This document shows, in pieces, positions 15,892-54,782 of a stretch of 64,000 nt of DNA (position 1 is the stretch's first letter; the number at the start of each line of letters is the position of its first letter). The notes under the pieces are model-generated. The model did no database searches and was not told the origin of the DNA. It worked only from the letters and a program-made list of their open reading frames with translations. Position numbers and translations under genes: made by a program. The DNA is from Nitrososphaerota archaeon (GTDB lineage: Archaea > Thermoproteota > Nitrososphaeria_A > Caldarchaeales > Caldarchaeaceae): positions 512,001 through 576,000 of the forward strand of contig JBEPYN010000002.1 of NCBI GenBank assembly GCA_041641305.1, read 5' to 3'.

Positions 15892-16870
15892 AATGGTCCG
15901 AATAATTTCTCGAAGCGAGCTCGAGAACTGGCTTGATATGAAGACCTCCGTCGAGATTGTTGAGGATTTTTTCAGAGATTATGGTGACGAGAAGTATGTT
16001 GCTCCGCCGAGGATGGTTACAGCGATTGAAGAGCGTGACGCCGTCTACCTCAACATGCCGGCCGCCAGCCTCCACGCCGGAGGTTACACGGTGAAGCTGA
16101 TAAACGAATACAGGAAAAACCCCGTGCTACACGGCGTCGAGGCAGCCCATGGTGTGGTGCTTTTCTTCGACATAGAAACTGGGATGCTTAAGGGAATTGT
16201 GGACGCGGTGGCACTCACGTCTCTCAGAACAGGTGCAATAGGTGGAGTGGGTGCAAAATATCTCGCACCCGCTGACAGCAGGTCAGCAGCATTAATAGGG
16301 AGTGGTAGAACAGCGTGGACACAGTTGACAGCTCTACACACAGTACGAGGCATTGAGCGGGTCAAAATCTACAGCCCCACAAAGGCCAACAGAGAAAAGC
16401 TCGCTGAAAAAGCCGCGAAGACCTTGGGAATAGATGCGGAAGCGGTCGAGAACCCGCGTGAAGCGGTTGAGAACGCTGAAGTGGTGCTGGCGGCCACGAA
16501 CTCAGCGGAACCTGTTTTGACGGGTGAGTGGCTTGCAGAAAATGTTCATGTCACGAGTATTGGGGCTTTGCCTACTCGTAGAGAGCTTGACCTTGAGACT
16601 TTCCGCCGCGCGGAGCTGATAGCCGCCGACCTCAAGAAATCCGTGCTCAAGGAGGCTGGGGACATAATGGCCGCGGTTGAGAAGGGAATCGTGGACCCGG
16701 CCAAGGTTCTTGAGCTCCATGAAGTTGTTAAACAGAACCTGACAAGGCCCCGGAACGTTCACGTCACATTGCTCAAATCCGTTGGGTTTGCGGCTCTCGA
16801 CCTTTACTTTACTTCACGTGTCCTGAGAATGGCTGAGAAGATGGGCGTCGGCCGGGTTATCGAGCTTTAG
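15884..16870 (+). CDS. Ornithine cyclodeaminase / mu-crystallin family protein
   Basis: LTSLRTGA, IGSG, ATNS and KSVG motifs. Confidence 0.9.
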   Translation: MNKMVRIISRSELENWLDMKTSVEIVEDFFRDYGDEKYVAPPRMVTAIEERDAVYLNMPAASLHAGGYTVKLINEYRKNPVLHGVEAAHGVVLFFDIETGMLKGIVDAVALTSLRTGAIGGVGAKYLAPADSRSAALIGSGRTAWTQLTALHTVRGIERVKIYSPTKANREKLAEKAAKTLGIDAEAVENPREAVENAEVVLAATNSAEPVLTGEWLAENVHVTSIGALPTRRELDLETFRRAELIAADLKKSVLKEAGDIMAAVEKGIVDPAKVLELHEVVKQNLTRPRNVHVTLLKSVGFAALDLYFTSRVLRMAEKMGVGRVIEL

Positions 16871-17994
16871 TATGACCTCGGTAGGCCGAGGCCTTTTTCC
16901 GCTATGAATGCAAGGGCCAGCTCCTGTGTTATCGGCCCCGACTTAAGCAAGTAGATGTCTCTCATCACCCGCTCCAGCCCAGACTCCTTAAGGTAGCCGT
17001 GTCCGCCGAGAACCTGAATAGCTTGCCCAACCGCCTTGAACACAACCTCGGAGGCGAAATACTTGGCCACGCACGCGGCCACACTCGCATCCTCGTCCCT
17101 GTCAAACTTTCCAGCGGCGTCGAATGTCAGAAGCTTCGCCGCCTCGGCTTCGGCGTAGAGTACTGCGAGTGGGAACTGTATGCCCTGATATGTGCCTATG
17201 GGTTTTCCGAAGACTTTCCGCTCCTTGGCATATGAGGTGGCTGTTTTGATTGCGAAAAGCGCTGAGCCGACGGCGAGTGCTGCGTAAACTATGCGATCCG
17301 GGTTAAGTGCATGTGTGAGAGCCTTCCAACCGTTGTCCACCTCCCCCACAACACTCTCCTCATCAACCTCGACATTCTCAAGCCTCATCAAACCCGTGCG
17401 GAAATAATTGGTACCCATCTTCGGAAGCTCCGAGAAGCTGAGACCCGCCGCCTTCATGTCGAGAACAAACAACGTAATCCCCGCACTCTTCTTCGCAGCA
17501 CGTTCAAGCGGCGTTGTCCTCGCTGCAAGAAGCATATGGGTGGCTCTGTCAAAGTTGTTGACATACATCTTCTCCCCGTTTATCACATATTTCCTACCTT
17601 GTTTGACCGCGGTTGTCTTTATCGAGAGAACATCGGATCCAGATTCTCTCTCTGTTATCGAGAGGCCCATGATGTATTCTCCTGTAGCGAGTCGCGGAAG
17701 AATGCTTTGACGCTGGCTCTCTGACCCTGATTTGTTTATCACGAGAGAGGCCATGTTGTTGCTGAGAAGCGGGTAAATGGCTGTCCCGCAGCCATGCATA
17801 GTGAGATAAATCACGGCTTCGACGAGTTTAGAGACGGTTTTGCCCAGTCCGCCGTAGGTTTCTGGAATCAGGAACCCGGGCATCCGACGCCTCCCACACT
17901 CTCGCCAAAACTCCTCGGGGAACTCACCCTCATCGCTTGCCTTCTCCCAGTAGCTCAGCGGGAAAAGTGCTGGCAGGTCCACAACCTCTTTCAC
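16867..17994 (-). CDS. Acyl-CoA dehydrogenase
   Basis: ITERESGSD, INGEKMY, RKVFGKPIG.YQGIQF and QVLGGHGY motifs. Confidence 0.93.
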   Translation of the reverse strand: MKEVVDLPALFPLSYWEKASDEGEFPEEFWRECGRRRMPGFLIPETYGGLGKTVSKLVEAVIYLTMHGCGTAIYPLLSNNMASLVINKSGSESQRQSILPRLATGEYIMGLSITERESGSDVLSIKTTAVKQGRKYVINGEKMYVNNFDRATHMLLAARTTPLERAAKKSAGITLFVLDMKAAGLSFSELPKMGTNYFRTGLMRLENVEVDEESVVGEVDNGWKALTHALNPDRIVYAALAVGSALFAIKTATSYAKERKVFGKPIGTYQGIQFPLAVLYAEAEAAKLLTFDAAGKFDRDEDASVAACVAKYFASEVVFKAVGQAIQVLGGHGYLKESGLERVMRDIYLLKSGPITQELALAFIAEKGLGLPRSY

Positions 17995-22118: not shown

Positions 22119-23069
22119 ATGAAGTTTCTAAGCGATTCGGACGTTGCTGCAGTTGTTGATCCTGTAAAGGTTGTTGAAGCTGTGGAGCGTGCCTACATAC
22201 TCTATAGCACGGGCCGGGTGGTGATGCCTGTCCGCTCACGTGTAGAAAACAAGGAGCATGGTGGCGACATATTGATGATGCCGTGTCTAGTGCCAGACAT
22301 GGGAATTTTTAGTCTCAAGCTGGTGACAGTCTATCCCCGCAACCTCGAAAAAGGCTTGCCGACGATAAACGCGACAGTCATAGCTTTGGACGCGTCAACG
22401 GGGATGCCTCAGCTCGTGGCTGAGGCGAGGGCTCTCACAGGTTTACGCACAGCGGCAGCAACAGCTGTCTCCATCAAACATATGGCACGTCGCGACTTCA
22501 CCAAAGTCGGAATAATCGGTGCAGGGTATCAGGCGCGGTGGCAGCTGCGGGTCGTCGCGGCAAACCATCCACACGCCATCTTCAAGGCCTATGACATCGA
22601 CTCCAAACGCTTAGACGAGTTTGTGACGGAGATGAGCCGCATGGGATATGAGGTAAAGCCATCGCCGACGGCTGAAGAGCTTGTGAGATGGAGCGATGTC
22701 GTGATAACAGTCACAACCTCGAAGCAGCCGGTGGTGCTGAGGAGCTGGGTGAAAGAAGGCACACACATATCCGCGATAGGTGGCTACACACCTGAGATGG
22801 TTGAAATCGAGCCAACACTCGTCGCAAACTCGAAGCTCGTGGTCGACTCGCGTGAAGCGGTGCGGGAGGAGGCGGGCGACATCCTGAAGCCTATTGAGCT
22901 TGGGCTGATGAGGTTCGAGGACATCTACGCCGAGATAGGGGAAATAGCAGCAGGCCTCAAACCCGGGAGAACACATGAACGGGAGATAACGGTCTTCAAG
23001 AGCGTGGGCCTCGCCGTCCAAGACGCCGCCACAGCCAAACTCCTCATCGACTACCTAATGACGAGATAA
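22119..23069 (+). CDS. Ornithine cyclodeaminase / archaeal alanine dehydrogenase family protein
   Basis: [15 protein letters not shown] and [10 protein letters not shown] motifs. Confidence 0.92.
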
Positions 23070-24694: not shown

Positions 24695-24803
24695 TTTTCC
24701 TCGGCAAACACATTATGCAGCGGGATAATAAGTCCAGAAACACGAACACCGCCAGCCATTCCTTGGAACGGTTTAAAACCCAGCCCATAAGACCCAACAC
24801 AAG

Positions 24804-27110
24804 TTGAAGCTATCAAAAAGGGTTGAGGACCCGCGTCTTCTGCGGGGAGAGGGAATTTTCATAGATGACCTCGCTTTTCCCCAGATGCTTCATCTAGTTT
24901 TTGTCCGAAGCCCCTATGGCCATGCAAAAATAAAATCGATAAACAGCCATGAGGCGCTTAAGAAGGCTGTTGCGGTTATCGACGGCAGAACAGTGGCCAC
25001 AGAGGCTAAGCCGCTCTACACTCTGATTAGGGATGTAGCATATTATGGCATAGCTGTCGGGAAGGCGAGGTTTTTCGGCGAACCCGTGGCCATGGTCTTG
25101 GCCGAGACGCTTGGCGACGCTTATGACGCTGCTGAAGAAGTGGTTGTTGATTACGAGCCGTTGCCAGCGTTGGTTGACCCCGAGGAGGCGGCGAACTCCT
25201 CCAACCTTGTGCATGAAAACCTCGGCTCAAACGTGGTCCTGAGCCGTCGATTCATGTTTGGAGATGTTGAGAAAGTGTTCGCCGAAGCCGACACGGTTGT
25301 GAAGGAGAAGTTCTATTTTGACAGATATGCCGCGGCACCCATAGAGACCTGCGGGGTCATAGCTGTCCCGGGCAAGGACGGCTCACTAACCGTTTACGAC
25401 AACCAGCAGACACCTCAGCTTTTCAAAAAATCTATAGCACAATCCCTCGGGCTTCAGCCAGAGAAGCTACGGTTCATCGAACACGACATAGGAGGCGGAT
25501 TTGGAGTAAAAATAATGCTCTACCCATATGTTTTCCTAACCTGTTTCGCCGCTCTCAAGCTCAGAAAACCTGTAAAATGGGTGGAGACGCGTCGTGAACA
25601 TTTGACAGCTATGGCGCATAACTCCAACAGAGTGACTGTTGCGGAGATGGCTTTGAGGAGAGATGGCAGGGTAACTGGTTACCGGACAAGCTTCATAGAG
25701 GATGTGGGCGCGTATGCCCGGCTCCCAGACCCTGGTGGAACGGTGCGCTCGCTCATGACATACCTCGGATGCTACGATATCCAAAACGTTGACGTCGAGT
25801 TCAAAGTTGTCTTAACAAACAAGTGTCCCACGGGCCCGGTGCGGGGATACGGGTGTCAGCAGGCCTACTTCGTCCTCGAACGCATGATGGACATCGCGGC
25901 TCGGGAGCTCAGGTTAAACCCTGTTGAGATTCGTCTTAAAAACATGGTGGAAAATGTGCAGCAGCCCTACCGCACTGTTTTCGGAAGCCTCTACGACGGC
26001 GGCGACTACAAAACCACACTACTCAAGGCTTGGAGCCTATCACAGGCTGAGAAATATCGCGGAGAACAAGATGTCGGTGTTGGCGTGGCTTGTGTGGTGG
26101 AGCCTGCTGTGACAAATCTCGCCCGCAACAAGCTGCTTTTCCCAGAGCTTGAGTCATCCGGCTCCGGAGAGGGTGCTGTGGTGAGGATGGAGGAGTCGGG
26201 AAACATAACTGTCTACGCTGCTTCTATCCCACAGGGACAGGGCCACGCAACAGTGCTTACGGAACTCGTATCAGAAGTTCTGGGCGCCCGGCCTGAGCAG
26301 GTGCGTATAGTATTCGGCGACACGGACCGTGTTTATCCAAGCCCATACGGCGGCACATGGGCAAGTAGGTTCAGCGTCATGACGGTGGCAGCGGTCAAAA
26401 AATCATGCGAAACACTGAAACAGAGAATTCTCGAGATAGCCGCCGAAATTCTCGAGACTTCGGCAGAAGACCTTGAGATCAGGGATGGCGAAGTATACGT
26501 GAAGGGGTCGGATGTCTCCATATCGTTTGAGAAACTTGCGGCAACAGCCTACCGCAACTCCCTCACCGTCAGAGGCAAGCACACAAGTCTTCAAGCAGAA
26601 TGTTTCTATGAGTTCCCGACATTCAACACCGGTGAACCGGGTAAAATCAACATGTCAGCCACCTACGGAAACTCGGCACACGTAGCCATAGTCAAGGTCG
26701 ACAGAGAGACGGGCGAGGTCAAGATTCTGCGATATGTAGCCGTACATGACTGTGGAAAAATATTGAACAAGAATATAGTGGATGGTCAGATAATCGGCGG
26801 AGTCATGCAGGGGATTGGTGCAACGCTTTATGAGGAAATTGTCTATGATGAAAACGGTCAGATGCTGACGGCTCACTTTAGCGATTATCTGCTTCCCACT
26901 GCAGAGGAGACGCCGGAGATAGTCATAGACCATGTTGAGACGCCGTCGATGTTCTCTGAGCTTGGTTCGAAGGGGATGGGAGAGGGTCCTCTGATACCGG
27001 TGGCAGCCGCCATAGTCAACGCGGTCGAGGACGCGGTCAAAACAAGGTTAACCAGGTCCCACCTATCCGCCAGCCGGCTCTGGGCAACAATAAATGGACA
27101 AAGTCTTTAA
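24804..27110 (+). CDS. Xanthine-dehydrogenase-family molybdopterin large subunit
   Basis: RVEDPRLLRG, GGGFGVK, active-site PVRGYG, QGQGH, GQIIGG and KGMGE motifs. Confidence 0.93.
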   Translation: MKLSKRVEDPRLLRGEGIFIDDLAFPQMLHLVFVRSPYGHAKIKSINSHEALKKAVAVIDGRTVATEAKPLYTLIRDVAYYGIAVGKARFFGEPVAMVLAETLGDAYDAAEEVVVDYEPLPALVDPEEAANSSNLVHENLGSNVVLSRRFMFGDVEKVFAEADTVVKEKFYFDRYAAAPIETCGVIAVPGKDGSLTVYDNQQTPQLFKKSIAQSLGLQPEKLRFIEHDIGGGFGVKIMLYPYVFLTCFAALKLRKPVKWVETRREHLTAMAHNSNRVTVAEMALRRDGRVTGYRTSFIEDVGAYARLPDPGGTVRSLMTYLGCYDIQNVDVEFKVVLTNKCPTGPVRGYGCQQAYFVLERMMDIAARELRLNPVEIRLKNMVENVQQPYRTVFGSLYDGGDYKTTLLKAWSLSQAEKYRGEQDVGVGVACVVEPAVTNLARNKLLFPELESSGSGEGAVVRMEESGNITVYAASIPQGQGHATVLTELVSEVLGARPEQVRIVFGDTDRVYPSPYGGTWASRFSVMTVAAVKKSCETLKQRILEIAAEILETSAEDLEIRDGEVYVKGSDVSISFEKLAATAYRNSLTVRGKHTSLQAECFYEFPTFNTGEPGKINMSATYGNSAHVAIVKVDRETGEVKILRYVAVHDCGKILNKNIVDGQIIGGVMQGIGATLYEEIVYDENGQMLTAHFSDYLLPTAEETPEIVIDHVETPSMFSELGSKGMGEGPLIPVAAAIVNAVEDAVKTRLTRSHLSASRLWATINGQSL

Positions 27111-27133
27111 GACACCCAAAAAACAGGGAAGAC

Positions 27134-28318
27134 GTGCCATCATACATAATCAAAAACGCTGGAACAATCCTCACAGGAGACATATACAAACCTGTGGCGG
27201 ACGGAAACAGCATATACATCAAGGATGGAGTAATCGAAGAAGTGGGTTGGAACATTTCACGGCAGGCGGACGGCGTCTTCGACGTCAACAACATGACAGT
27301 CATGCCTGGTTTATTTGATTCACATGTCCATCCAGTTTTCGGAGACTTTACACCGCGGCAGAACACACTCGGCTTCATCGAATCCTCTGTCCACGGCGGG
27401 GTAACAACATTCATCTCAGCAGGTGAGGTGCATCTACCTGGAAGACCGCGTGGCGACAAGGAAGCGTCAAAAGCCCTCGCCATCATCACACATAAATCAT
27501 TCAAAAACATTCACCCGCTCGGCGCCAAGATACACGCGGGCGCCCTTCTTCTTGAGAAGGGGATGACGGATGCGGATTTTGAGGAGGTTGTCAGGGCCGG
27601 GGTATGGCTTGTCGGTGAGGTGGGTCTAGGGAGTGTGCAGGACCCTGATGAAGCCGCTGTCATGGTGCGGATGGCGCAGAAACATGGGATGAAGGTAGTC
27701 ATCCACACAGGCGGAGCATCTATACCAGGAAGCACAATAAACAACGCAGAAGTAGTTCTCAAAGTCAGGCCCGACGTCGTGTCACATATAAACGGCGGCC
27801 CAACCTCGCCGTCGATACATGACATAAGAAAAATAATTGAAAACCTTAACTCCGCCATCGAGGTAGTCCAGTGCGGAAACTTCCGCTCGATGCTGGAGAC
27901 GGTTAAGATTCTTAGGCAGAAAAACGAGCTTCACAGGCTCATAATAGGTAACGATGCGCCATCAGGAACAGGCGTCATCCCACTCGGCATAATCAGAACA
28001 ATATCCTTCATAGCGTCTAACTCGGATGTCGAGGCTGAAAAAGTTGTATGCGCCGCGTCAGGCAACACCGGAAAAGTATTCGGGTTGAGAGAGGGAGTGA
28101 TTGAGGCAGGACGGCCGGCGGACCTTGTGGTCGTCGACGCTCCCTATGGCTCGGTTGCGAAGGATGCTGTGGAAGCTTTTTCAATTGGTGATATTCCTGG
28201 CGTGGCCATGGTGATGGTTGACGGAGTTCCACGTGTTGGACGCAGCAGGATGACGCCGCCGCCCACCCGAGCAATCAAGACAGAGGGTATAGCCAGGTTG
28301 CCGGAGGCAGGTCACTGA
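27134..28318 (+). CDS. Enamidase-like amidohydrolase
   Basis: DSHVH..GDFTPRQ, HGGVTT, GEVGLG, HTGGASIPG, SHINGGP, NDAPSGTG and SR.TPP match, from memory, Eubacterium barkeri enamidase. Confidence 0.85.
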   Translation: MPSYIIKNAGTILTGDIYKPVADGNSIYIKDGVIEEVGWNISRQADGVFDVNNMTVMPGLFDSHVHPVFGDFTPRQNTLGFIESSVHGGVTTFISAGEVHLPGRPRGDKEASKALAIITHKSFKNIHPLGAKIHAGALLLEKGMTDADFEEVVRAGVWLVGEVGLGSVQDPDEAAVMVRMAQKHGMKVVIHTGGASIPGSTINNAEVVLKVRPDVVSHINGGPTSPSIHDIRKIIENLNSAIEVVQCGNFRSMLETVKILRQKNELHRLIIGNDAPSGTGVIPLGIIRTISFIASNSDVEAEKVVCAASGNTGKVFGLREGVIEAGRPADLVVVDAPYGSVAKDAVEAFSIGDIPGVAMVMVDGVPRVGRSRMTPPPTRAIKTEGIARLPEAGH

Positions 28319-29304
28319 TGAAGCTCGGACTACGCCTACCCACCTACGCGAAGCCAGGCGATTTCTCCTCCTACGAGACACTGAAAAACTATGTTGCGCT
28401 GGCGGAGGACCTGGGTGTTGAAGGTTTTTTCGTCATAGACCATCTGCTCACCTCGAGGCCTGCTTACTCGACAAGCTGGCACGATCCTCTGATAGCTCTC
28501 TCCTTCATCGCCGCAGCCTCTAAAAAAGCAGTCATCGGCCCCATGATACTTGTTCTCCCGTTCAGAAACCCGTATCTTCTCGCGAAGCAGCTAGCGTCTC
28601 TGGATGTATACTCTGGAGGCCGTCTGATTCTTGGAGCAGGGGTTGGGTGGAACCCTGATGAGTTCAGGCTTTTGAATACGCCGCTGGAGAAACGAGGAGC
28701 CATAATGGATGAATACCTTGTCCTGCTGAAGAAGCTTTGGACAGAGGATAAAATCACTTTCGAGGGTAAGTTCTTCAACGTGTGGGACTTGGTTCTGGAG
28801 CCGAAGCCCAGCCAAAAGCCTCATCCACCTATTTGGATTGGTGGGGGCAGCCAGCCTCATGAAATACTCTATGGAGCAGCGGCCAAGGGCATTGACAGGG
28901 TGCTGTACCGTGTGGCGAAGTTTGCCGATGGCTGGATACCGCACTCGAGCTCCACACCCGAGATGGCGAGACAGGACTGGGAGAAGGTCAAGAAATATGC
29001 CACCGAGCTTGGACGCGACCCATACAAAATCCAAAAAGTATACTCGAACTTTGTCTACATCAAGAGGCCGGGCGACAGCGACGATGAAGCGGTCAAACGT
29101 TTCTCCCTCTACTCTGGCATGAACCTCGAATACTGGAAAAACTTCTACCTATACGGCACCGTCGAGGAGTTGGCTCGAAAGATAAAGAACCGGATACAGT
29201 CTCTCGAGGGTGTTGACTGGATTGTCCTCAACCCGGTGACTTATGAGGAGAGCCAGCTGCGGAAAATCACTGACGAGCTTGTACCGCTTTTAGATAATGT
29301 ATAG
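28318..29304 (+). CDS. LLM-class (luciferase-like) flavin/F420-dependent oxidoreductase
   Basis: IDH, DP, LAKQLASLDVYSGGRLILG.GVGW and PKP.QKPHPPIWIGG motifs. Confidence 0.9.
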   Translation: MKLGLRLPTYAKPGDFSSYETLKNYVALAEDLGVEGFFVIDHLLTSRPAYSTSWHDPLIALSFIAAASKKAVIGPMILVLPFRNPYLLAKQLASLDVYSGGRLILGAGVGWNPDEFRLLNTPLEKRGAIMDEYLVLLKKLWTEDKITFEGKFFNVWDLVLEPKPSQKPHPPIWIGGGSQPHEILYGAAAKGIDRVLYRVAKFADGWIPHSSSTPEMARQDWEKVKKYATELGRDPYKIQKVYSNFVYIKRPGDSDDEAVKRFSLYSGMNLEYWKNFYLYGTVEELARKIKNRIQSLEGVDWIVLNPVTYEESQLRKITDELVPLLDNV

Positions 29305-29336
29305 ACTTATATGTAGGAGTTTTAGGTGAAGCTTCT

Positions 29337-30551
29337 GTGAAAAAGTCCGTATTGGTCGCCATTGTTGCGGTGATAGTCGTTGTCGCTGTCGCTGCTTCTG
29401 CGGCCTTTCTCTTCCTGTCGCAGCGAAGCCTCGGCGTATCAGAGGTTAAGATTGGTGCGTTGGTTCCATTGACGGGGCCTTTCGCTGTTTACGGCTCCTA
29501 CACTCTCGACGGCATGAGGTTTGCTGTCGAGGAGATAAACGCTCGAGGAGGTGTTCTCGGCGCCCGTGTTGTCCTCGTGGAGGCTGACGAGAAGAACGAC
29601 GCCAAAGAGGCTGTGGCAATCTTCAAGAGAATGGCCGAGGTTGACAGGGTGACGGCGGTTGTTGGAACAATTTCGAGCGGGATTGGCGCGGTTCTCTCGG
29701 CGGAGGCGGAGCAGGCCAAGGTGCCGCTGTTCCTTGTAGCGGCCGGCTCCCACACTATATTGACCAAGGAGTCGCGGTACACCTTCAGAACATGTCTTCC
29801 ACCCGCTCCTACCAACGGTGAGCTGTTGGCGAACTTTGTCCGCGACAAGGGCTACAAACGCGTCGGCGTCATCATAGCCAGCTATGAATGGGGCTTCGCC
29901 ATCAGAGATGTCTTGGACAAAAGGTTGAAGGCGCTAGGTGTGCAGTATCAGATCGAGGAGGCGCCCCTAGGTGAAACAGACTTTACAACGGTTCTACGCA
30001 AGCTTCAGCCTCTGCAGCCAGAGGTCATGATACTCACCGGACATCCACCAGGCTTCCCAACGATCACGAAACAGGCCATCGAGCTTGGGTTCCAGTCCGA
30101 GTACTACATCGCATCCGTGCAGCCGCCTGAGCTGATGCTAAGGGGTGTAGGCGACATCGGCCTAGGCAAACTCGTGACCACCACCTGCGTAAACAGCGAA
30201 GCACCTGAGTACAGGCAGCTTGCGGAAAGGTTTTACCAAAAATATGGAAAATTCTTTGACCACAACGCTGTCACGGGCTACGTTACAGTCATGATGATAG
30301 CGGACGCTGTGGAGAAGACCAGGTCAGTTGACCCTGTCACTGTAGCGAACCACATACGGACAAGCGAATACAACTCGGCGATATTTGCCTGGCCCCTCTC
30401 CTACACCGAGTGGGGTGAGATAAAGAAGCCTTCTATGAGGTTGGCTGTAATCAAAGGAGGTAACCCCGGAAACATCAACCCCGGCGCCAACTGGGTTATC
30501 GAAACACTCTATGTCTCGCCGCCCGTGGAGCCTTACGTGCCCGAAAAATAA
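29337..30551 (+). CDS. Branched-chain-type (HAAT) ABC substrate-binding protein
   Basis: KIGALVPLTGP and AVEEINARGGVLG motifs; N-terminal TM anchor. Confidence 0.92.
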   Translation: MKKSVLVAIVAVIVVVAVAASAAFLFLSQRSLGVSEVKIGALVPLTGPFAVYGSYTLDGMRFAVEEINARGGVLGARVVLVEADEKNDAKEAVAIFKRMAEVDRVTAVVGTISSGIGAVLSAEAEQAKVPLFLVAAGSHTILTKESRYTFRTCLPPAPTNGELLANFVRDKGYKRVGVIIASYEWGFAIRDVLDKRLKALGVQYQIEEAPLGETDFTTVLRKLQPLQPEVMILTGHPPGFPTITKQAIELGFQSEYYIASVQPPELMLRGVGDIGLGKLVTTTCVNSEAPEYRQLAERFYQKYGKFFDHNAVTGYVTVMMIADAVEKTRSVDPVTVANHIRTSEYNSAIFAWPLSYTEWGEIKKPSMRLAVIKGGNPGNINPGANWVIETLYVSPPVEPYVPEK

Positions 30552-30574
30552 CCATCTTTTTATTTCTCTCTACT

Positions 30575-31333
30575 GTGGTGGATGAAGGGTTGACCACGAT
30601 GATTAGATGTGTCGAGGTTACGAAGTATTTTGGCGGCTTACCAGCGCTTAAAAACGTGAACCTCGAGGTAGAAGCCAACGAAATAAGGGCGATTATAGGC
30701 CCGAATGGTGCGGGAAAAACAACCCTCTTCAACGTGATCAACGGTATTTACAAACCATCCTCAGGGAAGATATTCTTTGACGGAAAAGACATTACGGGTA
30801 AGTCTCCTCACCAGATATTCAAGCTCGGCATGAGCCGAACTCTTCAGATTCCCAGACCCTTCAAGGATTTGACGGTGTGGGAAAATGTTCTAGCTGGCGG
30901 ACTATTCAACGATAGACTTGAGAGAACGGAGCTCGAGAAACATGTTTCAACACTGTTGGATAGGCTGGGTCTTGCCGCGAAGTCGGAGATGAAAGCAGGC
31001 CTCCTGAACCTGCAGGAAAGGAAGAAGGTTGAGCTAGCGAGGGCCCTTGCCTCGAAGCCTAAGGTGCTAATGGTTGACGAGTACATGAGTGGGCTTAACA
31101 CCGCGGAGGTTGAGGAAGCCGTAGACCTCTTCAGAGACCTGCGGCGGGAATATGGGCTAACTATCATATGGGTGGAGCATGTGATAAGCGCGGTCGCATC
31201 TCTTGCAGACAAGGTGACTGTGCTCAATCAGGGGACGAAGCTGGCTGAGGGGAAACCCGAGGAAGTCGTGATGGACCAAGAAGTTGTTGAAGCGTATTTA
31301 GGTGAGAAAGTTGCCGAAACTTCTTCAGCTTGA
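30575..31333 (+). CDS. ABC ATP-binding protein (LivG-like)
   Basis: GPNGAGKTT, ELARAL and EAYLG motifs. Confidence 0.93.
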   Translation: MVDEGLTTMIRCVEVTKYFGGLPALKNVNLEVEANEIRAIIGPNGAGKTTLFNVINGIYKPSSGKIFFDGKDITGKSPHQIFKLGMSRTLQIPRPFKDLTVWENVLAGGLFNDRLERTELEKHVSTLLDRLGLAAKSEMKAGLLNLQERKKVELARALASKPKVLMVDEYMSGLNTAEVEEAVDLFRDLRREYGLTIIWVEHVISAVASLADKVTVLNQGTKLAEGKPEEVVMDQEVVEAYLGEKVAETSSA

Positions 31334-32030
31334 GAACCTAGACTCGGGATACGGCGACATACAGATTCTCTGGAATGTTTCGTTGACTGTGGAGAAGGGT
31401 GAGGTGGTGGCGGTGCTCGGCCCCAATGGAGCGGGAAAAACAACTTTGCTCAAAACAATCGCAGGCATAACAAAGCCTAAGAAAGGAAAGATTCTGCTTG
31501 AGGGAAAAAGAATTGACGGCCAGCCGCCTGAGAAAATCGTAGAAGAAGGTGTGGCCCTTGCTTTGGCCGAGAAAGAGCTTTTCCCGCTGATGACTGTGCA
31601 CGAAAACCTGATCCTCGGCGCATTCAACAAACGGGCCCGCCAAAAGTTGGATGAAAGCCTCGAGATAGTTTACAGCATCTTCCCCAAGCTAAAGGAGAGA
31701 GCTTCCCAGAAGGCCGGCACCATGAGCGGAGGGGAACAGCAGATGCTTGCAATAGGCAGAGCCCTGATGACAGACTCGAAGCTTCTTCTGCTGGATGAAC
31801 CATCAACGGGCTTGGCGCCACTGCTTGTGAAAACCATTTTCGACGCTTTGAGAAGGCTTATGGAGACAAAGAACGAGCTCTCCATCCTGCTTGTAGAGCA
31901 GCGGACCTTGCAGGCCGCGCAGCTCAGCGACAGAGGCTACGTGTTGTCAAACGGCCGCATCGTGTATGAGGGCGACATCAAAGACGCCGTATCCTCAAAG
32001 GCTTTCCTGAGAAAATACATGGGGATGTAG
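31302..32030 (+). CDS. ABC ATP-binding protein (LivF-like)
   Basis: GPNGAGKTT, MSGGEQQMLAIGRAL and LDEPS motifs. Confidence 0.93.
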   Translation: MRKLPKLLQLENLDSGYGDIQILWNVSLTVEKGEVVAVLGPNGAGKTTLLKTIAGITKPKKGKILLEGKRIDGQPPEKIVEEGVALALAEKELFPLMTVHENLILGAFNKRARQKLDESLEIVYSIFPKLKERASQKAGTMSGGEQQMLAIGRALMTDSKLLLLDEPSTGLAPLLVKTIFDALRRLMETKNELSILLVEQRTLQAAQLSDRGYVLSNGRIVYEGDIKDAVSSKAFLRKYMGM

Positions 32031-32903
32031 ATGGATGCATCTATAATCCCGTACCTTGTTGACGGCATAGTCTTCGGGCTTGTCCTTTCACTGATAGCGG
32101 CTGGGCTTACGCTGATATATGGCTTAGCGGGCGTGCTCAATCTGGCGCATGGAGAGCTTCTCGTGATAACAACTGTCACAGCAGCCGTTCTCTCACAGTC
32201 ACTAGGTTTACCACTTCCACTAGCGCTGCTCGCAGGCGTTGCAGCTACAGTGGCCGCCGCCGTTGTTCTCGACCGTGTAGTATTGAATCCTGTGTACAAG
32301 CTTGAGGGGGAGGAGAGGGTGTTGCTCGGTCTCTACATAACTTTAGCCTTCTCGATTTTCCTGCACAGTGGGATAATCACCACTTTCCCACTTGCTTTTC
32401 TGACAGTGAATCTGCCAACTCCAAACATAGAGCTAATCGGCTTATCGTTTAGAACGGCCCAGCTGGTAGCGGCTGTAATATCGGCTGCAATACTTCTCGG
32501 CATCTATCTTTTTCTGAAGAAAACGTGGAGCGGCAGGGCGATTCGCTCACTAACACAGAACGAGACAGGGGCCTTGCTGGTGGGTGTGAGCGTGAAAAAA
32601 TATAGGCTGCTCGTGTTCATGATCGGAGCTGTTTTAGTCAGCATGGCCGGCATTGTTAGAAGCATCATTGCAACGGTGGCTCCCGAAAGTGGTCTCGAGT
32701 TCACCATACTCGGCCTACTGGTGACAGTCATCGGCGGAATAAGAAGCGTCTCGGGAACAATAGCGGCCGGGCTCGTGATAGGTGTTGCATACACGTTTCT
32801 GGTGGTCGTCGTGGGAACCTACCTCGCATACGTCGCCCTGCTTATCCTCATCATGGCGCTGCTGCTTACAAGGCCCTATGGAATACTCGGTGAGAGATGG
32901 TGA
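32031..32903 (+). CDS. ABC permease (LivH-like)
   Basis: GLTLIYG..LNLAHGE and RPYG motifs. Confidence 0.92.
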   Translation: MDASIIPYLVDGIVFGLVLSLIAAGLTLIYGLAGVLNLAHGELLVITTVTAAVLSQSLGLPLPLALLAGVAATVAAAVVLDRVVLNPVYKLEGEERVLLGLYITLAFSIFLHSGIITTFPLAFLTVNLPTPNIELIGLSFRTAQLVAAVISAAILLGIYLFLKKTWSGRAIRSLTQNETGALLVGVSVKKYRLLVFMIGAVLVSMAGIVRSIIATVAPESGLEFTILGLLVTVIGGIRSVSGTIAAGLVIGVAYTFLVVVVGTYLAYVALLILIMALLLTRPYGILGERW

Positions 32904-33865
32904 CTGATAGATTCCTGAAAACCAGGTTGTATGTCCTAGCGGCGCTAGTAATAATATACATCGTGTTACCTCTTCCCTTCATCAACACGCCCTACGTGGT
33001 TTTCATACTTGCGCAGATGACCTTCTTCACAGTATTCGCCTATAGCTTTAATTTCCTGTTCGGTTTCACGCGACAGCTCTTCCTCTGCGTCGGAGCCTTC
33101 GCAGGCATAGGCGCATACATCACGGGGATAATGTTGAGGGATGGCTTAACCGGGCCAATCGAGGCTGTCGCTTTGTCAACGGTTGCAGTCGCCCTCATCG
33201 GCTGGGCTGTCAGCATTGTCTCCGTGAGACGCAGGCTCGTAGCAATCTTTACAGGAATTTTCACACTCGCCATCACACTCGTCTTCGGCAACCTCGTCAC
33301 CGGTCTCGTGGAAGTAACTGGAGGAGAAACAGGCTTCAGGATAAGAGGAGTAAGCCTATTGTTTTTAGACACCATGCCATACTACATGAGATACTACTAC
33401 ATCGCTTTAGCTACGCTGCTGTCGGTCACTACAGTGGCTTTCTACCTCATCTATTACACGAAAACAGGCTACGCGTATAGATGCATTATAGACGATGAGC
33501 TGAGCGCGGAGCTGGTCGGCATAAACGTGCAGAGGGTTAAGACTTTGACGGCCTTGCTTGCATCAGCTTTGCTCGGTTTTTCCGGGGCGTTGTACGGCCT
33601 TTTCTCACAGCTCATTTCACCATCCTATTACGCCTTTGGCTCCATAGACCTGCCCGTCCAAATAATAGTGATTCTCGGCGGCAGAACCTCTCTCCTCGGC
33701 CCGTACATAGGCTCAGCCATAATAGCGGTCGTCAACGAGTCTCTAAGGTTTCTTGGACCACTTACCCAGCTCCTATATGGTCTGATTCTGATGCTTCTTC
33801 TCGCCTTCTTCCGAAATGGGATAGTTGACTTTGTGAAAAGAAAGGTTGCGCCGTGGTTCTATTAA
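32897..33865 (+). CDS. ABC permease (LivM-like)
   Basis: TGGETG and ILGG.TSLLGP motifs; many TM helices. Confidence 0.9.
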   Translation: MVTDRFLKTRLYVLAALVIIYIVLPLPFINTPYVVFILAQMTFFTVFAYSFNFLFGFTRQLFLCVGAFAGIGAYITGIMLRDGLTGPIEAVALSTVAVALIGWAVSIVSVRRRLVAIFTGIFTLAITLVFGNLVTGLVEVTGGETGFRIRGVSLLFLDTMPYYMRYYYIALATLLSVTTVAFYLIYYTKTGYAYRCIIDDELSAELVGINVQRVKTLTALLASALLGFSGALYGLFSQLISPSYYAFGSIDLPVQIIVILGGRTSLLGPYIGSAIIAVVNESLRFLGPLTQLLYGLILMLLLAFFRNGIVDFVKRKVAPWFY

Positions 33866-34479
33866 CGGAGACCGTCCTCGCCCTTTACCTCCTCTTTACG
33901 TAGTCCACCAATCCGTGGCAAAGGCCTCCCCGAGTCGGTTACAGCGGCAATCACAACTATTTCGTCGGGCAGAGGCGCGTCGGGAACACGTGCCTCGACA
34001 GCGTCATAGTGGCTTCTCACAAACGCAGCTCTCTTAAAGTGCAGGGGGACGTCGATTGCTGTGCCAGGGGCCCCTAGCTTAGCCGATGAAGGAATTATAG
34101 CTTTGCATGCATCCTGTCCGCCGCATTCTTCCCGCAGTCCACGACCAAACTTAGGATGGAGAATAGCGTGGCCATGCTCAAGCTCTCCACCCAAACCGAT
34201 TATCGCGGCTTTGCCGTAGCTCTCCACATCGGCTGGCGCAATTCCCAGCGCCTCCCGAGCCCTCTTCGCCAAAAATCCGCCCAAGAAATCTCCAGCATCT
34301 ATGAGCAGCTGCAAATCCTCCACATATTTGCCGGCGTATGGGTTCTTGACCACAGCCGCGGCGGCGCTTTTTCTCACAGGCTTCTGCAAAACTTTCCCAT
34401 TCTCCAGGAACACCTCATCAACATAGACAGCGACTTTACGTATAGCTACACCTGGTGCAGCCTCAAGCATCACCACCAC
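33862..34479 (-). CDS. Amino acid synthesis family protein (DUF1185)
   Basis: NPYAG, ESYGKAAIIG..GELEH, RSHYD, DAP.PDE and GRP.PR motifs. Confidence 0.88.
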   Translation of the reverse strand: MVVMLEAAPGVAIRKVAVYVDEVFLENGKVLQKPVRKSAAAAVVKNPYAGKYVEDLQLLIDAGDFLGGFLAKRAREALGIAPADVESYGKAAIIGLGGELEHGHAILHPKFGRGLREECGGQDACKAIIPSSAKLGAPGTAIDVPLHFKRAAFVRSHYDAVEARVPDAPLPDEIVVIAAVTDSGRPLPRIGGLRKEEVKGEDGLR

Positions 34480-35912
34480 CTCGTCGTCACAATCTTGTGG
34501 TCTGTAAAGAATCTTATGGTGTCGACGCGGCTATGAGCTGTTCCGAAGAAGGATTGCTTCCTTCCACCGAGAGGAAAGTAGGCCATGGGCTGTGGGACAC
34601 CTATGTTTACACCCACGTTTCCAACGTTAACATCAAGCACAAACCTGCGTGCTGTGTTCGGGTTTGATGTGAAGATAGAGGCGGCGTTGCCGTAGGGAGT
34701 GTTTCTGTTTATCAGATCGATTGCCTCGTCCAAGCTCTCCGCATAAAGAACCGATACGACGGGGCCGAATATCTCCTCCTTTGCTAGTGGGGAGCTGGGA
34801 GACACGTCTGTGAAAACTGTTGGGCCCACGAAGTAGCCGTTCAAAGGCTTAAGCGGCTTGTTCTTCCTTCCGTCGACGAGAAGCCTCCCAAATTCTTCAC
34901 CAAGCTCGATATATTTCCAAACTCTCTCCAACCCAGCCCTTGAAGCCATCGGGCCCATCTCGGTCTCCTTATCCATGCCGTATCCAAGCCTAAGCATGGA
35001 CTTGTCCCGCACCAAGTCGACAACCTTCTCACCCCCCTTTACCACGACAAGGTTGGAGCCGGCCAGACAACGTTGACCAGACATTCCGAAAAAGGATGAC
35101 ACAGCAGCATCAGCGGCCTTGACAAAATCTGTGTCAGGCATTACAACAAGGTGGTTTTTGGCACCGGCGTTTATAGACGCGCGTTTCCCCTCTTTCGCGG
35201 CCAGCTCATACAGAAACTTTCCTGTCTTCGTTGAACCTATGAAACCCACGCCCTGTATATCAGGATGTCTAGCCAGCTTCTCCGCAACTCTACCGTCACC
35301 GTGGACAACCGACATTACACCCGCAGGAACACCGGCCTCCTTCACAATCCTGGCCACCTCGTTCGCGACAACAGGTGTCACCTCACTCGGCTTAAGCACA
35401 ACAGTGGCGCCAAGGGCTATGGCGTAGGGCACGTATGAGGACCATGCGTGCAGCGGAATGTTGAAAGGAGTTATCACGGCAAAGCATCCAAGCGGCTCTC
35501 GGATAAGCTCCTGATCTATGTCTGGGGATATGTTGACCATTTTCTCGCCCTTAGCCAAGGTGTAGGCGAGCGCAGCCGCTGCCTCGACGTTTTCCAGACT
35601 CCGTTTAACCTCTCCCACCGCCTCCGCATAGGTTCTTCCATGGTTGTCGACAAGTATTCTCGAAAGCAGCTCGGTATCCCTGTTCATCAGCTCACGGATC
35701 TTCAACAGGTAGGCGACCCTTTCCGAGGGTGTAGTTTTCCGAAACTTTTCAAAAGCGGCTACACCTGCCTCAACGGCTTTAGCAACCTCTTCCTCAGTGC
35801 TGACGGGGACGTAGGCGATGTCTGTGTCAAAAGCAGGGTTCTTTACCGGAATCCTCTCAGAAGACTTCGACTCAACAAACTGCCCAGCAATGAAGTTAGG
35901 TAGTAAACTCAT
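34470..35912 (-). CDS. CoA-acylating aldehyde dehydrogenase (methylmalonate-semialdehyde dehydrogenase family)
   Basis: ITPFN, LKPSE, FIGST, GAKNH, GQRCLA, EEIFGPV and VGVNIGVP motifs. Confidence 0.9.
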   Translation of the reverse strand: MSLLPNFIAGQFVESKSSERIPVKNPAFDTDIAYVPVSTEEEVAKAVEAGVAAFEKFRKTTPSERVAYLLKIRELMNRDTELLSRILVDNHGRTYAEAVGEVKRSLENVEAAAALAYTLAKGEKMVNISPDIDQELIREPLGCFAVITPFNIPLHAWSSYVPYAIALGATVVLKPSEVTPVVANEVARIVKEAGVPAGVMSVVHGDGRVAEKLARHPDIQGVGFIGSTKTGKFLYELAAKEGKRASINAGAKNHLVVMPDTDFVKAADAAVSSFFGMSGQRCLAGSNLVVVKGGEKVVDLVRDKSMLRLGYGMDKETEMGPMASRAGLERVWKYIELGEEFGRLLVDGRKNKPLKPLNGYFVGPTVFTDVSPSSPLAKEEIFGPVVSVLYAESLDEAIDLINRNTPYGNAASIFTSNPNTARRFVLDVNVGNVGVNIGVPQPMAYFPLGGRKQSFFGTAHSRVDTIRFFTDHKIVTTRWW

Positions 35913-35949
35913 GACTTTTTCCTCATATAGCGGTATTTTAAACGTGAAT

Positions 35950-52993: not shown

Positions 52994-53824
52994 TTGCCGA
53001 CAACCGTGGCCTTCCAGGGTGAAAAAGGCGCCTACAGCGAAGAAGCCATTCTGCATTTTTTCGGCAGCGAGGTTCAGACGCTGCCCTGCAGAAGCATCCG
53101 CGAGGTTTTCAAGAACTGTGAGGCCAGGGTTGTGGACTATGGCGTGGTCCCGGTGGAGAACAGCATAGAGGGAAGCGTATTCGAGACATATGACATGTTC
53201 CTCAGCTCAAGCGTCAAAGCAGTTGGTGAAATCATTCTCAGGATACGTCACTGCCTAATCGCGTTACCCGATGTCTCGCTCAACGAAGTCGAGACAGTCT
53301 ACTCACATCCACAGGCTCTTGCACAGTGTCGTGGATATCTTCAGTCGCTCGGTGTATCTGTCGAGGTTACATATGATACAGCCGGCAGCGTGAAGATGAT
53401 TAAGGAGAGGGGGTTAAGGAATGCTGCTGCTGTTGCGAGCGAGAGGGCCGCGGAAATCTATGGCATGAAGGTTCTTGCTAAAGGGATAGAGGACTATGGC
53501 CACAACTATACACGTTTCCTCGTAATATCCGTGAAAGAGGCGCTTCATTCCCCCAACAGCAAAACATCCATCATCTTCTCCACAGCCCACAAGCCCGGAG
53601 CGCTCTACAACGCACTCGGAGCATTCGCGAGAAACGGGATAAACCTCACCAAGATAGAGTCACGGCCCACCCGGCAGAGGCCATGGGAGTATTACTTTTT
53701 CGTGGACTTCGAGGGTCATCAAGAAGATGAAAATGTGAAGAAAGCGTTGGCGGAGCTGGTCTCCTACGCATCCTTCATTAAAATCCTCGGCTCTTATCCA
53801 CGCGCGTCCACCGACTTATCCTGA
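52994..53824 (+). CDS. pheA: Prephenate dehydratase
   Basis: QGEKGAYS, PVENS.EG, SHPQALAQC, NYTRF and TKIESRP motifs. Confidence 0.95.
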   Translation: MPTTVAFQGEKGAYSEEAILHFFGSEVQTLPCRSIREVFKNCEARVVDYGVVPVENSIEGSVFETYDMFLSSSVKAVGEIILRIRHCLIALPDVSLNEVETVYSHPQALAQCRGYLQSLGVSVEVTYDTAGSVKMIKERGLRNAAAVASERAAEIYGMKVLAKGIEDYGHNYTRFLVISVKEALHSPNSKTSIIFSTAHKPGALYNALGAFARNGINLTKIESRPTRQRPWEYYFFVDFEGHQEDENVKKALAELVSYASFIKILGSYPRASTDLS

Positions 53825-54706
53825 CCCGATCCTTACGTTACAGAGTTTTTCGAGAACCTCTACCAAGGCTTGTGTACCATTTTCGCCGTGGCCCATTTCA
53901 TCCAGTGTTTTAATCAGCTCGGACACGAGCGCTATGCCTGGTAGGCAGAGGCCGAGGCTTTCGGCTGTTTCTCGGACAAACCGCAGGTCTTTCCTGAGAT
54001 GCTTGACCTTGAAACCCGGTCTCCAGTCTCTCACAACCATTCTTGGCCCGAGGTTGCTTAGCTGCCAGGAGCCGCCCGCCCCAGTTGAGATCACTTCTAT
54101 TACCCGCTTCAAGTCAAGCCCTGCTTTTGCCGCGATCATGAGGGTTTCACATACGCCGAGGAGGTTGAGCGAGACAGCCACCTGATTGCATAGCTTGGTG
54201 AAGCTTCCCGAGCCCGATTCACCCATGTAGTAGATGTTTTTCCCCATGGCTTCGAAGACGGGCCGCATTTTCTCGAAGACCTCGGGTTTGCCCCCCACCA
54301 TTATCGTGAGGGTTCCCTGCTCAGCGGCCATCGTGCTCCCCGAAACAGGTGCGTCAAGCATTTCTCCACCCCTTTCCTCGACACGGCGCATCATCTGCTT
54401 TGAGAAACCTGGAGAAACAGTTGACATATCGACCACGACACAGCCAGGTGCCATGCCTTCCAAAACACCGTTCTGCCCCAGCAGAACCTGCTCAACAGCC
54501 TTCTCATCGGGCAGCATGGTTATGACGCATTCCGAGAGCTTAGCCACCTCCCTCGGTGAACCACATGGAGTGGCTCCGAGAGAGGCCAGCTCATCAACAG
54601 GTACCCTGCTCCTGTTAAACACAGCCAGCTTGAAGCCGTGCCGCAGAAGATTCTTAGCCATCGGCTTCCCCATGAGACCAAGCCCTATGAACCCAACCCG
54701 CTCCAT
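53816..54706 (-). CDS. Beta-hydroxyacid dehydrogenase (2-hydroxy-3-oxopropionate reductase / HIBADH family)
   Basis: GFIGLGLMG, DMST, DAPVSG, KLCNQ and KDL motifs. Confidence 0.92.
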   Translation of the reverse strand: MERVGFIGLGLMGKPMAKNLLRHGFKLAVFNRSRVPVDELASLGATPCGSPREVAKLSECVITMLPDEKAVEQVLLGQNGVLEGMAPGCVVVDMSTVSPGFSKQMMRRVEERGGEMLDAPVSGSTMAAEQGTLTIMVGGKPEVFEKMRPVFEAMGKNIYYMGESGSGSFTKLCNQVAVSLNLLGVCETLMIAAKAGLDLKRVIEVISTGAGGSWQLSNLGPRMVVRDWRPGFKVKHLRKDLRFVRETAESLGLCLPGIALVSELIKTLDEMGHGENGTQALVEVLEKLCNVRIGSG

Positions 54707-54782
54707 GCAAATGCATACCTGAGAGGCGGTATGTAGGTTTTTTACATGGTATTCCACGGAATTTCTTGCGCTGAACAAAGTA

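Follow-up and report, generated by a model that had tools for sequence, protein, structure and literature searches.

The nicotinate fermentation of Eubacterium barkeri starts with a molybdenum (Mo)-dependent hydroxylase, proceeds by reduction to 1,4,5,6-tetrahydro-6-oxonicotinate (THON), and uses an enamidase to form 2-formylglutarate (PMC9304392, PMC3511419); the THON chemistry has been summarised (PMC9304392). A conserved THON gene cluster with HAAT transporters is also found in Bradyrhizobiaceae and other proteobacteria (PMC3511419). Here we analyzed a ten-gene cluster at positions 24804-35912 of a 64,000-nucleotide window (the whole stretch of DNA under study, C2:512001-576000) from the genome of a hot-spring Nitrososphaerota archaeon (Candidatus Caldarchaeum) of the family Caldarchaeaceae. 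This genome of 1.66 Mb is 99.3% complete, and the proteins encoded in the window are 94% identical to their counterparts in Candidatus Caldarchaeum subterraneum. We propose, with a probability of roughly 0.6, that the cluster serves as an island for the breakdown of nicotinate (or 6-hydroxynicotinate) by the THON route, in which one enzyme, the 6-hydroxynicotinate reductase Hnr, has been replaced by an unrelated one, a luciferase-like (LLM) oxidoreductase. The E. barkeri cluster was reportedly described by Alhapel et al. in 2006 (PNAS 103:12341), and the aerobic THON route of Azorhizobium caulinodans is said to have been reported by Kitts et al. in 1992.

More than 180 related loci were compared overall. 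The species-genome set held 80 enamidase loci (the best 80 of at least 583 hits), which were scored with the window proteins and with the proteins of a Desulfitobacterium cluster, and co-occurrence was counted in the 43 enamidase loci of at least 18 kb. The loci of anaerobic Bacillota and Thermodesulfobacteriota had the layout of E. barkeri, comprising NdhF, NdhS, split NdhL and NdhM, enamidase, Hnr, UPF0280 (283 aa), and DUF1185, and ended with Hgd and Hmd or with an aldehyde dehydrogenase (ALDH) resembling methylmalonate-semialdehyde dehydrogenase (MMSDH). Hgd is the 2-formylglutarate reductase of E. barkeri. Hnr is a protein of 490-510 aa with an N-terminal 2[4Fe-4S] domain, carried in NCBI and UniRef under the name 6-hydroxynicotinate reductase/hnr (a 505-507-aa Fer4 protein). 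Plasmids of the aerobic proteobacteria Sulfitobacter (L189) and a member of the Comamonadaceae (L190) encoded Hnr, UPF0280, two DUF1185 proteins, ferredoxin-NADP reductase, enamidase, and HAAT components, together with a Mo-hydroxylase in the case of Sulfitobacter. In addition, the Archaeoglobi archaeon JdFR-42 (L037, 9989-14665) had an enamidase gene, with an Hnr homologue and UPF0280 on the opposite strand, and a 10-kb neighbourhood showed neither NdhFSLM nor DUF1185; modules of the Hnr type thus occur in archaea too.

The cluster in the window consists of two converging operons, as judged from the list of open reading frames, Pfam, and NCBIfam. The forward-strand operon encodes a Mo-hydroxylase large subunit, an amidohydrolase, the LLM oxidoreductase, and a five-gene HAAT ABC transporter, and the reverse-strand operon encodes an MMSDH-like ALDH followed by a DUF1185 protein. 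Genes inside both operons are separated by gaps of 0-32 nt or overlap slightly, with an overlap of 1 nt between the stop of the enamidase gene and the start of the LLM gene. An earlier reading of this DNA from its letters alone (hereafter the sequence-only reading) had named all of these functions, as one run converging on the ALDH and DUF1185, and each was found there. Like E. barkeri, the archaeon has a Mo-hydroxylase and an enamidase (55% identical) in the cluster, and DUF1185 is also present in genome clusters of the E. barkeri type. Unlike E. barkeri, it has an LLM oxidoreductase instead of Hnr (Fer4 and DUF362-type) and UPF0280, an MMSDH-like ALDH instead of Hgd, Hmd, the B12 mutase, and the dimethylmalate branch, and one unsplit CoxL-like Mo subunit without F and S genes nearby instead of split NdhL/NdhM with NdhF and NdhS. 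The clusters of Azorhizobium and other proteobacteria resemble it in their aerobic context, HAAT transporter, enamidase, and DUF1185, and the outcome predicted here is that of the Azorhizobium-type route, glutarate/glutaryl-CoA rather than propionate and pyruvate. However, the proteobacterial clusters keep Hnr, UPF0280, and ferredoxin-NADP reductase, all of which would be replaced here by the LLM enzyme, presumably fed with F420H2 by Fno.

The LLM gene (28318..29304, forward strand) encodes a protein of 328 aa that matches Bac_luciferase (E 5e-46) and TIGR03619. Across the 43 long loci, the reductase was Hnr in 38 and LLM in five, and no locus had both or neither. The LLM gene adjoins the enamidase gene, without Hnr and UPF0280, in the Caldarchaeales loci L013-L018 and in two Terriglobia genomes. 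A tblastn search with the Desulfitobacterium Hnr orthologue (E 1e-5) found no Hnr in the window or the genome, and UPF0280, Hmd, DUF1015, and DUF429 likewise gave no match in the genome by tblastn. The sequence-only reading had suggested that the LLM enzyme reduces the hydroxypyridine ring in place of Hnr and that the genome be searched for hnr. Mutual replacement in 43/43 long loci and enamidase-specific linkage now support this suggestion, as does the failure to find hnr or its UPF0280 partner in a genome of this completeness.

LLM proteins of about 50% identity were also found in Acidobacteria, Methylomirabilota, Rokubacteria, Binatia, and others, and the enamidase gene adjoined the LLM gene in all three contexts examined (L093, L095, and L097). 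The gene order was GntR, HAAT ABC, enamidase, DUF1015, (DUF429), DUF1185, LLM, and an orphan Mo large subunit in the first two, and enamidase, LLM, CofD, and then the Mo L, M, and S subunits in L097. A metagenome scan, in which LLM orthologues were defined by at least 44% identity (22 loci) and paralogues by at most 40% identity (58 loci) as a built-in control, gave the same picture. Enamidase was present in 13 of the 14 orthologue loci with enough upstream DNA, a Mo large subunit lay downstream in most of those with enough downstream DNA, and Hnr was found in none of the 22; enamidase, DUF1185, and the Mo large subunit were all absent from the 58 paralogue loci. Since this linkage, to enamidase, DUF1185, and a Mo large subunit, is confined to orthologues, the LLM orthologue group is a dedicated member of the module. 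We propose from these patterns that the LLM protein is a 6-hydroxynicotinate reductase standing in for Hnr. In the soil-bacterial LLM clusters (L093, 7375-9415; L095, 8197-9426; L100, L103, and L105), DUF1015, and sometimes DUF429, lies between enamidase and DUF1185, and neither ALDH nor Hgd was found near the LLM gene. On plasmids, the LLM protein gave no match at E 1e-40.

In the searchable literature, no paper was found that connects the nicotinate THON pathway with F420, LLM enzymes, or Caldarchaeum, and we could not find the exchange of Hnr for LLM described, so it appears to be an undescribed variant of a known pathway. The sequence-only reading, which knew of no such pathway in archaea, agrees with this search, whereas any restriction to archaea does not hold: the LLM variant is common in soil bacteria, which rules out an archaea-specific pathway, and the Hnr-type cluster of Archaeoglobi stands in a metagenome-assembled genome.

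The amidohydrolase (27134..28318, forward strand; 394 aa) matched the E. barkeri enamidase structure (PDB 2VUN) with E 3.5e-122, its residues 3-382 aligning with residues 3-384 at about 55% identity. The residues H64/H66 (HxH), H191, H218, and D274 are conserved in 2VUN at the aligned positions and do not vary among 14 homologues; from general knowledge of the amidohydrolase superfamily, we take the HxH motif, the two His, and the Asp to be the ligands of a binuclear metal site. By homology, this protein is a true relative of enamidase (EC 3.5.2.18), as its enamidase-like label in the sequence-only reading implied, and we propose that it converts THON to 2-formylglutarate and ammonia. The enamidase tree placed the soil LLM-type proteins as sister to aerobic proteobacterial Hnr-cluster enamidases (SH-aLRT 93), with the Caldarchaeales clade (including L097 and L099) and the Terriglobia clade each branching separately. 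LLM-type and Hnr-type enamidases are interleaved, and both lie outside the long-branched clade formed by enamidase-like proteins of other contexts (Thermomicrobium, Rhodococcus, and a Mesorhizobium plasmid), the clade of the Rieske contexts. Within the Caldarchaeales, the enamidase orthologue occurs in 13 of the 16 genomes of the window's family and in 1/19, 0/4, and 0/35 genomes of the other families.

The DUF1185/AA_synth protein (33862..34479, reverse strand; 205 aa; Pfam E 3e-69) is a constant partner of enamidase. DUF1185 stands beside enamidase in 66 of the 80 genome loci, in those of the Hnr type as well as those of the LLM type, and is 55-62% identical between the two types. Its PDB matches, 2QTP and 3BYQ, are uncharacterised proteins. 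Taken together, the enamidase tree and the DUF1185 identity favour the same ring-opening chemistry in both types.

Enamidase-like clusters with neither Hnr nor LLM were observed on a megaplasmid of Thermomicrobium roseum (L186) and on plasmids of Rhodococcus sp. USK13 (L187) and Mesorhizobium (L188). The neighbouring genes differ from cluster to cluster; among them are those for DUF1185, Rieske dioxygenase subunits (in the Thermomicrobium and Rhodococcus contexts), DHDPS-like aldolases, SDRs, and a Mo-hydroxylase, and T. roseum alone adds a CoA ligase and enoyl-CoA hydratases. These clusters are probably uncharacterised routes for N-heterocycles in cultured strains. The present genome has a second possible N-heterocycle cluster (L184, G000:C1:1-8559), in which a diverged enamidase paralogue of 427 aa (37% identity) occurs together with a UbiD-family decarboxylase, a further LLM protein, two ABC ATPases, an ECF-type CbiQ component, and a Mo-hydroxylase large subunit truncated at the contig end.

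The ALDH (34470..35912, reverse strand; 480 aa) was assigned by TIGR01722 and PDB matches to the MMSDH type of CoA-acylating dehydrogenases. It scored 430.9 bits on TIGR01722 and 311 bits on the next family, and its ten best PDB matches were all MMSDH (about 340 bits, vs at most 244 for others). In comparison with 5TJR, the segments ...GQRCLA... and ...INAGAKNH... match ...GERCMA... and ...LGGAKNH..., so that there is an Arg-Cys pair at the active site and GAKNH replaces the segment with the general-base Glu (ELGGK). The enzyme thus resembles MMSDH (TIGR01722; PDB 1T90, 5TJR, and 4E4G) in family score, by a wide margin, in the Arg-Cys pair, and in the missing general-base motif; the meaning of these motifs we take from general knowledge of the ALDH literature. 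Arg104 also aligns with the Arg of the 'kRgiEnvE' motif in 5TJR, a carboxylate-binding residue. The MMSDH-like ALDH occurred in 22 of the long loci and Hgd in 17, never together, the pattern expected if both consume 2-formylglutarate. The sequence-only reading had the MMSDH-like enzyme turn 2-formylglutarate into glutaryl-CoA, and this mutual exclusion fits it; we propose the conversion of 2-formylglutarate to glutaryl-CoA and CO2, the proposed substrate being, like methylmalonate semialdehyde, a 2-substituted malonate semialdehyde. The only Hgd-like match in the genome (38% identity; window 53816-54778) lies 18 kb away and resembles a generic gene of the 3-hydroxyisobutyrate dehydrogenase family.

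The Mo-hydroxylase (xanthine dehydrogenase family) large subunit (24804..27110, forward strand; 768 aa) matched the Pfam domains Ald_Xan_dh_C, MoCoBD_1, and MoCoBD_2 (E 2e-20 to 2e-84), and its best PDB matches were CoxL, glyceraldehyde oxidoreductase, and quinoline oxidoreductase. All of 43 relatives, among them NdhL/M of Hnr-type clusters, retain Q202, GGGFG 230-234, R347, and the catalytic-type E727, and the subunit stands beside enamidase across the Caldarchaeales at 61-86% identity. In the tree, the Mo subunits of the Caldarchaeales and those of the bacterial LLM clusters fell on different branches within a single orphan CoxL-like subfamily with strong support; paralogues of this genome lay between these branches, and all were distinct from NdhL/M. 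The Mo enzyme named in the sequence-only reading is accordingly present as a complete large subunit, but as an orphan CoxL-like paralogue and not an NdhL/M orthologue. A Mo-hydroxylase is constant in the module, and the identity of the one used varies. The window subunit is the proposed nicotinate 6-hydroxylase, its substrate being the least secure of the assignments made here.

The genome contained 15 matches to large subunits but six 2Fe-2S (S) and six FAD (M) genes. Roughly ten of the large subunits are orphans, and a single CoxL-like subfamily accounts for six of them. One S and M pair (C1:185346-186705) stands alone, with no gene for a large subunit in its vicinity, and could serve several of the orphans. 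We also observed an operon in the style of E. barkeri, with FAD, 2Fe-2S, and split large-subunit genes (451 and 339 aa), at G000:C2:16318-19971, 520 kb from the cluster. This set and that at C1:501122-504695 are nearer to NdhL/M (37-47% identity) than the window subunit is.

F420 is the likely cofactor of the LLM enzyme, judging from its family model and from co-occurrence. The protein scored 200.4 bits on TIGR03619 ('F420-dependent LLM'; cut-off 166.9), a family that we take to be of the Rv2161c type and without known function. CofC (C1:510036-510575), CofD (C1:510608-511510), CofE (C1:163286-164029), and Fno (C3:22754-23365) were all identified above cut-off in this genome, Fno being the NADPH:F420 oxidoreductase. 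CofD was above cut-off in 5/5 other LLM-type genomes and in 0/10 Hnr-type genomes, a contrast that is confounded by phylogeny, and cofD adjoins the LLM gene in L097. The search for F420 biosynthesis genes proposed in the sequence-only reading succeeded for CofC, CofD, and CofE and failed for FO synthase (CofG/CofH). As FO synthase was not found, F420 would have to be built from imported FO, which suggests that the Caldarchaeaceae lineage depends on scavenged FO. The single genome of the family with CofH has no enamidase. F420H2-dependent hydride transfer to rings is known from NpdC/NpdI of picrate-degrading Rhodococcus and Nocardioides, LLM enzymes that act on electron-poor aromatic rings. The window enzyme, likened to them by description only, would share their luciferase-like fold and, in its proposed chemistry, move a hydride from F420H2 onto an activated carbon of the ring; unlike theirs, its substrate would be a 2-pyridone carboxylate and not a nitroaromatic compound.

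The five transporter genes lie on the forward strand and encode a binding protein with an N-terminal hydrophobic membrane anchor (29337..30551; Peripla_BP_6), two ATPases (30575-31333 and 31302-32030; ABC_tran, with BCA_ABC_TP_C on the first one), and two permeases (32031-32903 and 32897-33865; BPD_transp_2). HAAT transporters also flank bacterial clusters of the Hnr and LLM types (loci compared here; PMC3511419), and we propose that this system imports nicotinate or 6-hydroxynicotinate.

From the gene content, homology, conserved linkage, and replacement patterns, we infer the substrates, cofactor, and order of reactions as follows. The HAAT ABC system would import the substrate, and the Mo large subunit, together with FAD and 2Fe-2S subunits encoded elsewhere, would hydroxylate nicotinate at C6. 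The LLM enzyme would then form THON by hydride transfer to the 6-pyridone ring, with F420H2 as the most likely donor; Fno would regenerate F420H2 from NADPH, and the LLM enzyme would thereby do the job of the ferredoxin-dependent iron-sulfur enzyme Hnr. Enamidase would open the ring to 2-formylglutarate and ammonia, and the MMSDH-like dehydrogenase would oxidise and decarboxylate 2-formylglutarate to glutaryl-CoA. DUF1185 may help with a step near the enamidase reaction, one shared by all variants.

Several findings weigh against this proposal. No FAD or 2Fe-2S subunit gene adjoins the Mo subunit, which is only 29-33% identical to NdhL/M, and other paralogues are nearer to NdhL (C1:501-505 kb, 47%). 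Nor is the subunit strictly orthologous to those of the bacterial LLM clusters; such orthology was ruled out by the tree. The transporter's binding protein and its counterparts in the bacterial clusters, at 25% identity, are not orthologues. The ALDH stays slightly under the TIGR01722 cut-off (430.9 vs 448.5 bits), while a housekeeping MMSDH paralogue at C2:476615-478144 passes it (483.3 bits), which marks the ALDH as a diverged, cluster-specific enzyme. No glutaryl-CoA dehydrogenase could be singled out, since the five acyl-CoA dehydrogenases of the genome all fall below the NCBIfam cut-off for that enzyme, and acyl-CoA dehydrogenases showed no linkage to the bacterial clusters either. CofG/CofH are absent from this genome and from 16/17 genomes of the family, including a closed one. 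No close relative of the LLM protein has been solved (best PDB match 96 bits), and both FMN and F420 enzymes occur among its PDB neighbours, so that the cofactor rests on the family model and co-occurrence. Lastly, pairs of enamidase and DUF1185 occur in other contexts (Thermomicrobium, Rhodococcus, and Mesorhizobium, the last on a plasmid without Hnr). The pair is thus a reusable module that is not bound to nicotinate in every case, and a related substrate is possible.

Four other explanations can be set against this proposal. The same module might act on another N-heterocycle or lactam, such as a different pyridine or pyridone carboxylate, with its enzymes working on analogues. This is unlikely in our view, even though the Mo subunit belongs to the orphan CoxL-like subfamily, with five further paralogues in the genome, and is not of the Ndh type, the binding protein differs from the bacterial ones, Thermomicrobium roseum and Rhodococcus have Ena-like/DUF1185 pairs together with Rieske dioxygenases, aldolases, and CoA ligases, and a diverged Ena-like cluster exists in this very genome. 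The enamidase is 52-59% and DUF1185 55-62% identical to proteins of canonical nicotinate clusters, and LLM-type enamidases fall among the Hnr-type ones and not in the well-separated Rieske-context clade. Moreover, relative to clusters with Hnr and ALDH, the reductase is the only gene exchanged, apart from the differing type of Mo-hydroxylase. It is rather improbable, too, that the LLM enzyme performs another redox step (for instance, reduction of 2-formylglutarate to 2-(hydroxymethyl)glutarate with F420, or an FMN oxygenation) while an unlinked enzyme reduces the ring. We know of no LLM enzyme that reduces a pyridone, the characterised F420-dependent LLM enzymes among the PDB matches include alcohol and aldehyde oxidoreductases (Adf, FGD, and hydroxymycolate dehydrogenase), and soil-bacterial LLM clusters have no ALDH or Hgd nearby, all of which would suit such a role. 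However, it is Hnr that LLM excludes, not Hgd or ALDH. Caldarchaeum and Terriglobia have LLM alongside the MMSDH-like ALDH, and it is this ALDH that excludes Hgd. Besides LLM, the LLM-type clusters have no redox gene common to all of them, and the genome encodes neither Hnr nor its partner anywhere.

A further explanation keeps both the pathway and the role of the LLM enzyme as we propose them and changes the donor to reduced FMN, or to NAD(P)H with a bound flavin. We rate it lower still. The lack of FO synthase in this genome and nearly the whole family, and the FMN-type luciferase-like proteins that are the nearest solved relatives by sequence, speak for it, whereas the score above the TIGR03619 cut-off, the retention of CofC, CofD, CofE, and Fno, the neighbourhood of cofD and LLM in L097, and the presence of CofD in 6/6 LLM-type genomes (this one included) vs 0/10 Hnr-type genomes speak for F420. 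At 328 aa, the protein is also as large as LLM enzymes of the F420 type, without the long insertions of FMN monooxygenases. It is barely credible that unrelated housekeeping genes have come to lie together by chance. The CoxL-like, amidohydrolase, LLM, ALDH, and HAAT families are large and have paralogues in the genome, but archaea and three or more bacterial phyla have this gene set in common, with orthologue-specific linkage, and we regard chance juxtaposition as ruled out on these grounds.

The layout of the cluster is conserved. It is kept in five further Caldarchaeales assemblies (L013-L017), and in HR01, where the transporter has been relocated, DUF1185-ALDH still adjoins the LLM gene. 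The cluster core also recurs in Terriglobia, Methylomirabilota-like, and soil-metagenome contigs, and the conserved arrangement and this recurrence together indicate that the grouping is not due to chance. Two TTTAAAA TATA-like boxes were read from the sequence, one on the forward strand (24772..24778), 25 nt 5' of the TTG start of the first operon, and one on the reverse strand (35936..35942), 23 nt 5' of the ATG of the ALDH-DUF1185 operon. Both are putative promoters, and their spacing of 23-25 nt, compared with general archaeal promoter architecture, suggests leaderless transcripts. In metatranscriptomes, one run, from a study in which the DNA itself occurs, gave no reads from the cluster (about 3% of the run was read) and a second gave only short, diverged pieces. 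One of the five acyl-CoA dehydrogenase genes lies on the reverse strand at 16867-17994, 7 kb upstream of the cluster. At G000:C1:402671-405551, an acyl-CoA dehydrogenase gene immediately precedes the gene for the Mo-hydroxylase paralogue placed as sister to the window subunit. In addition, a gene of the ornithine cyclodeaminase/mu-crystallin family (22119-23069, forward strand) is located just upstream of the cluster and is syntenic in L016.

Beyond this genome, we consider the odds about even that the whole LLM clade (at least 44% identity to the product of window 28318-29304) represents a new F420H2-dependent 6-hydroxynicotinate (2-pyridone) reductase, that many soil bacteria (Terriglobia, Methylomirabilota-like, and others) share an undescribed, ferredoxin-free THON pathway with the Caldarchaeaceae, and that DUF1185 is a near-universal enzyme of THON-type pathways acting with enamidase. 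If true, reduction of a pyridone ring would be an added type of reaction for F420-dependent luciferase-like enzymes, and a function would be assigned to part of the large TIGR03619 family. The comparison also provides two leads, namely that DUF1185, which has two crystal structures and no function, may belong to the enamidase step, and that glutaryl-CoA in the 'Azorhizobium' branch probably comes from MMSDH-like enzymes. A textbook anaerobic pathway would thus have been rebuilt for aerobic or microaerobic organisms that use F420, and, as far as our literature search goes, it would be the first candidate route for nicotinate catabolism in archaea, in the Caldarchaeaceae, which are known only from genomes.

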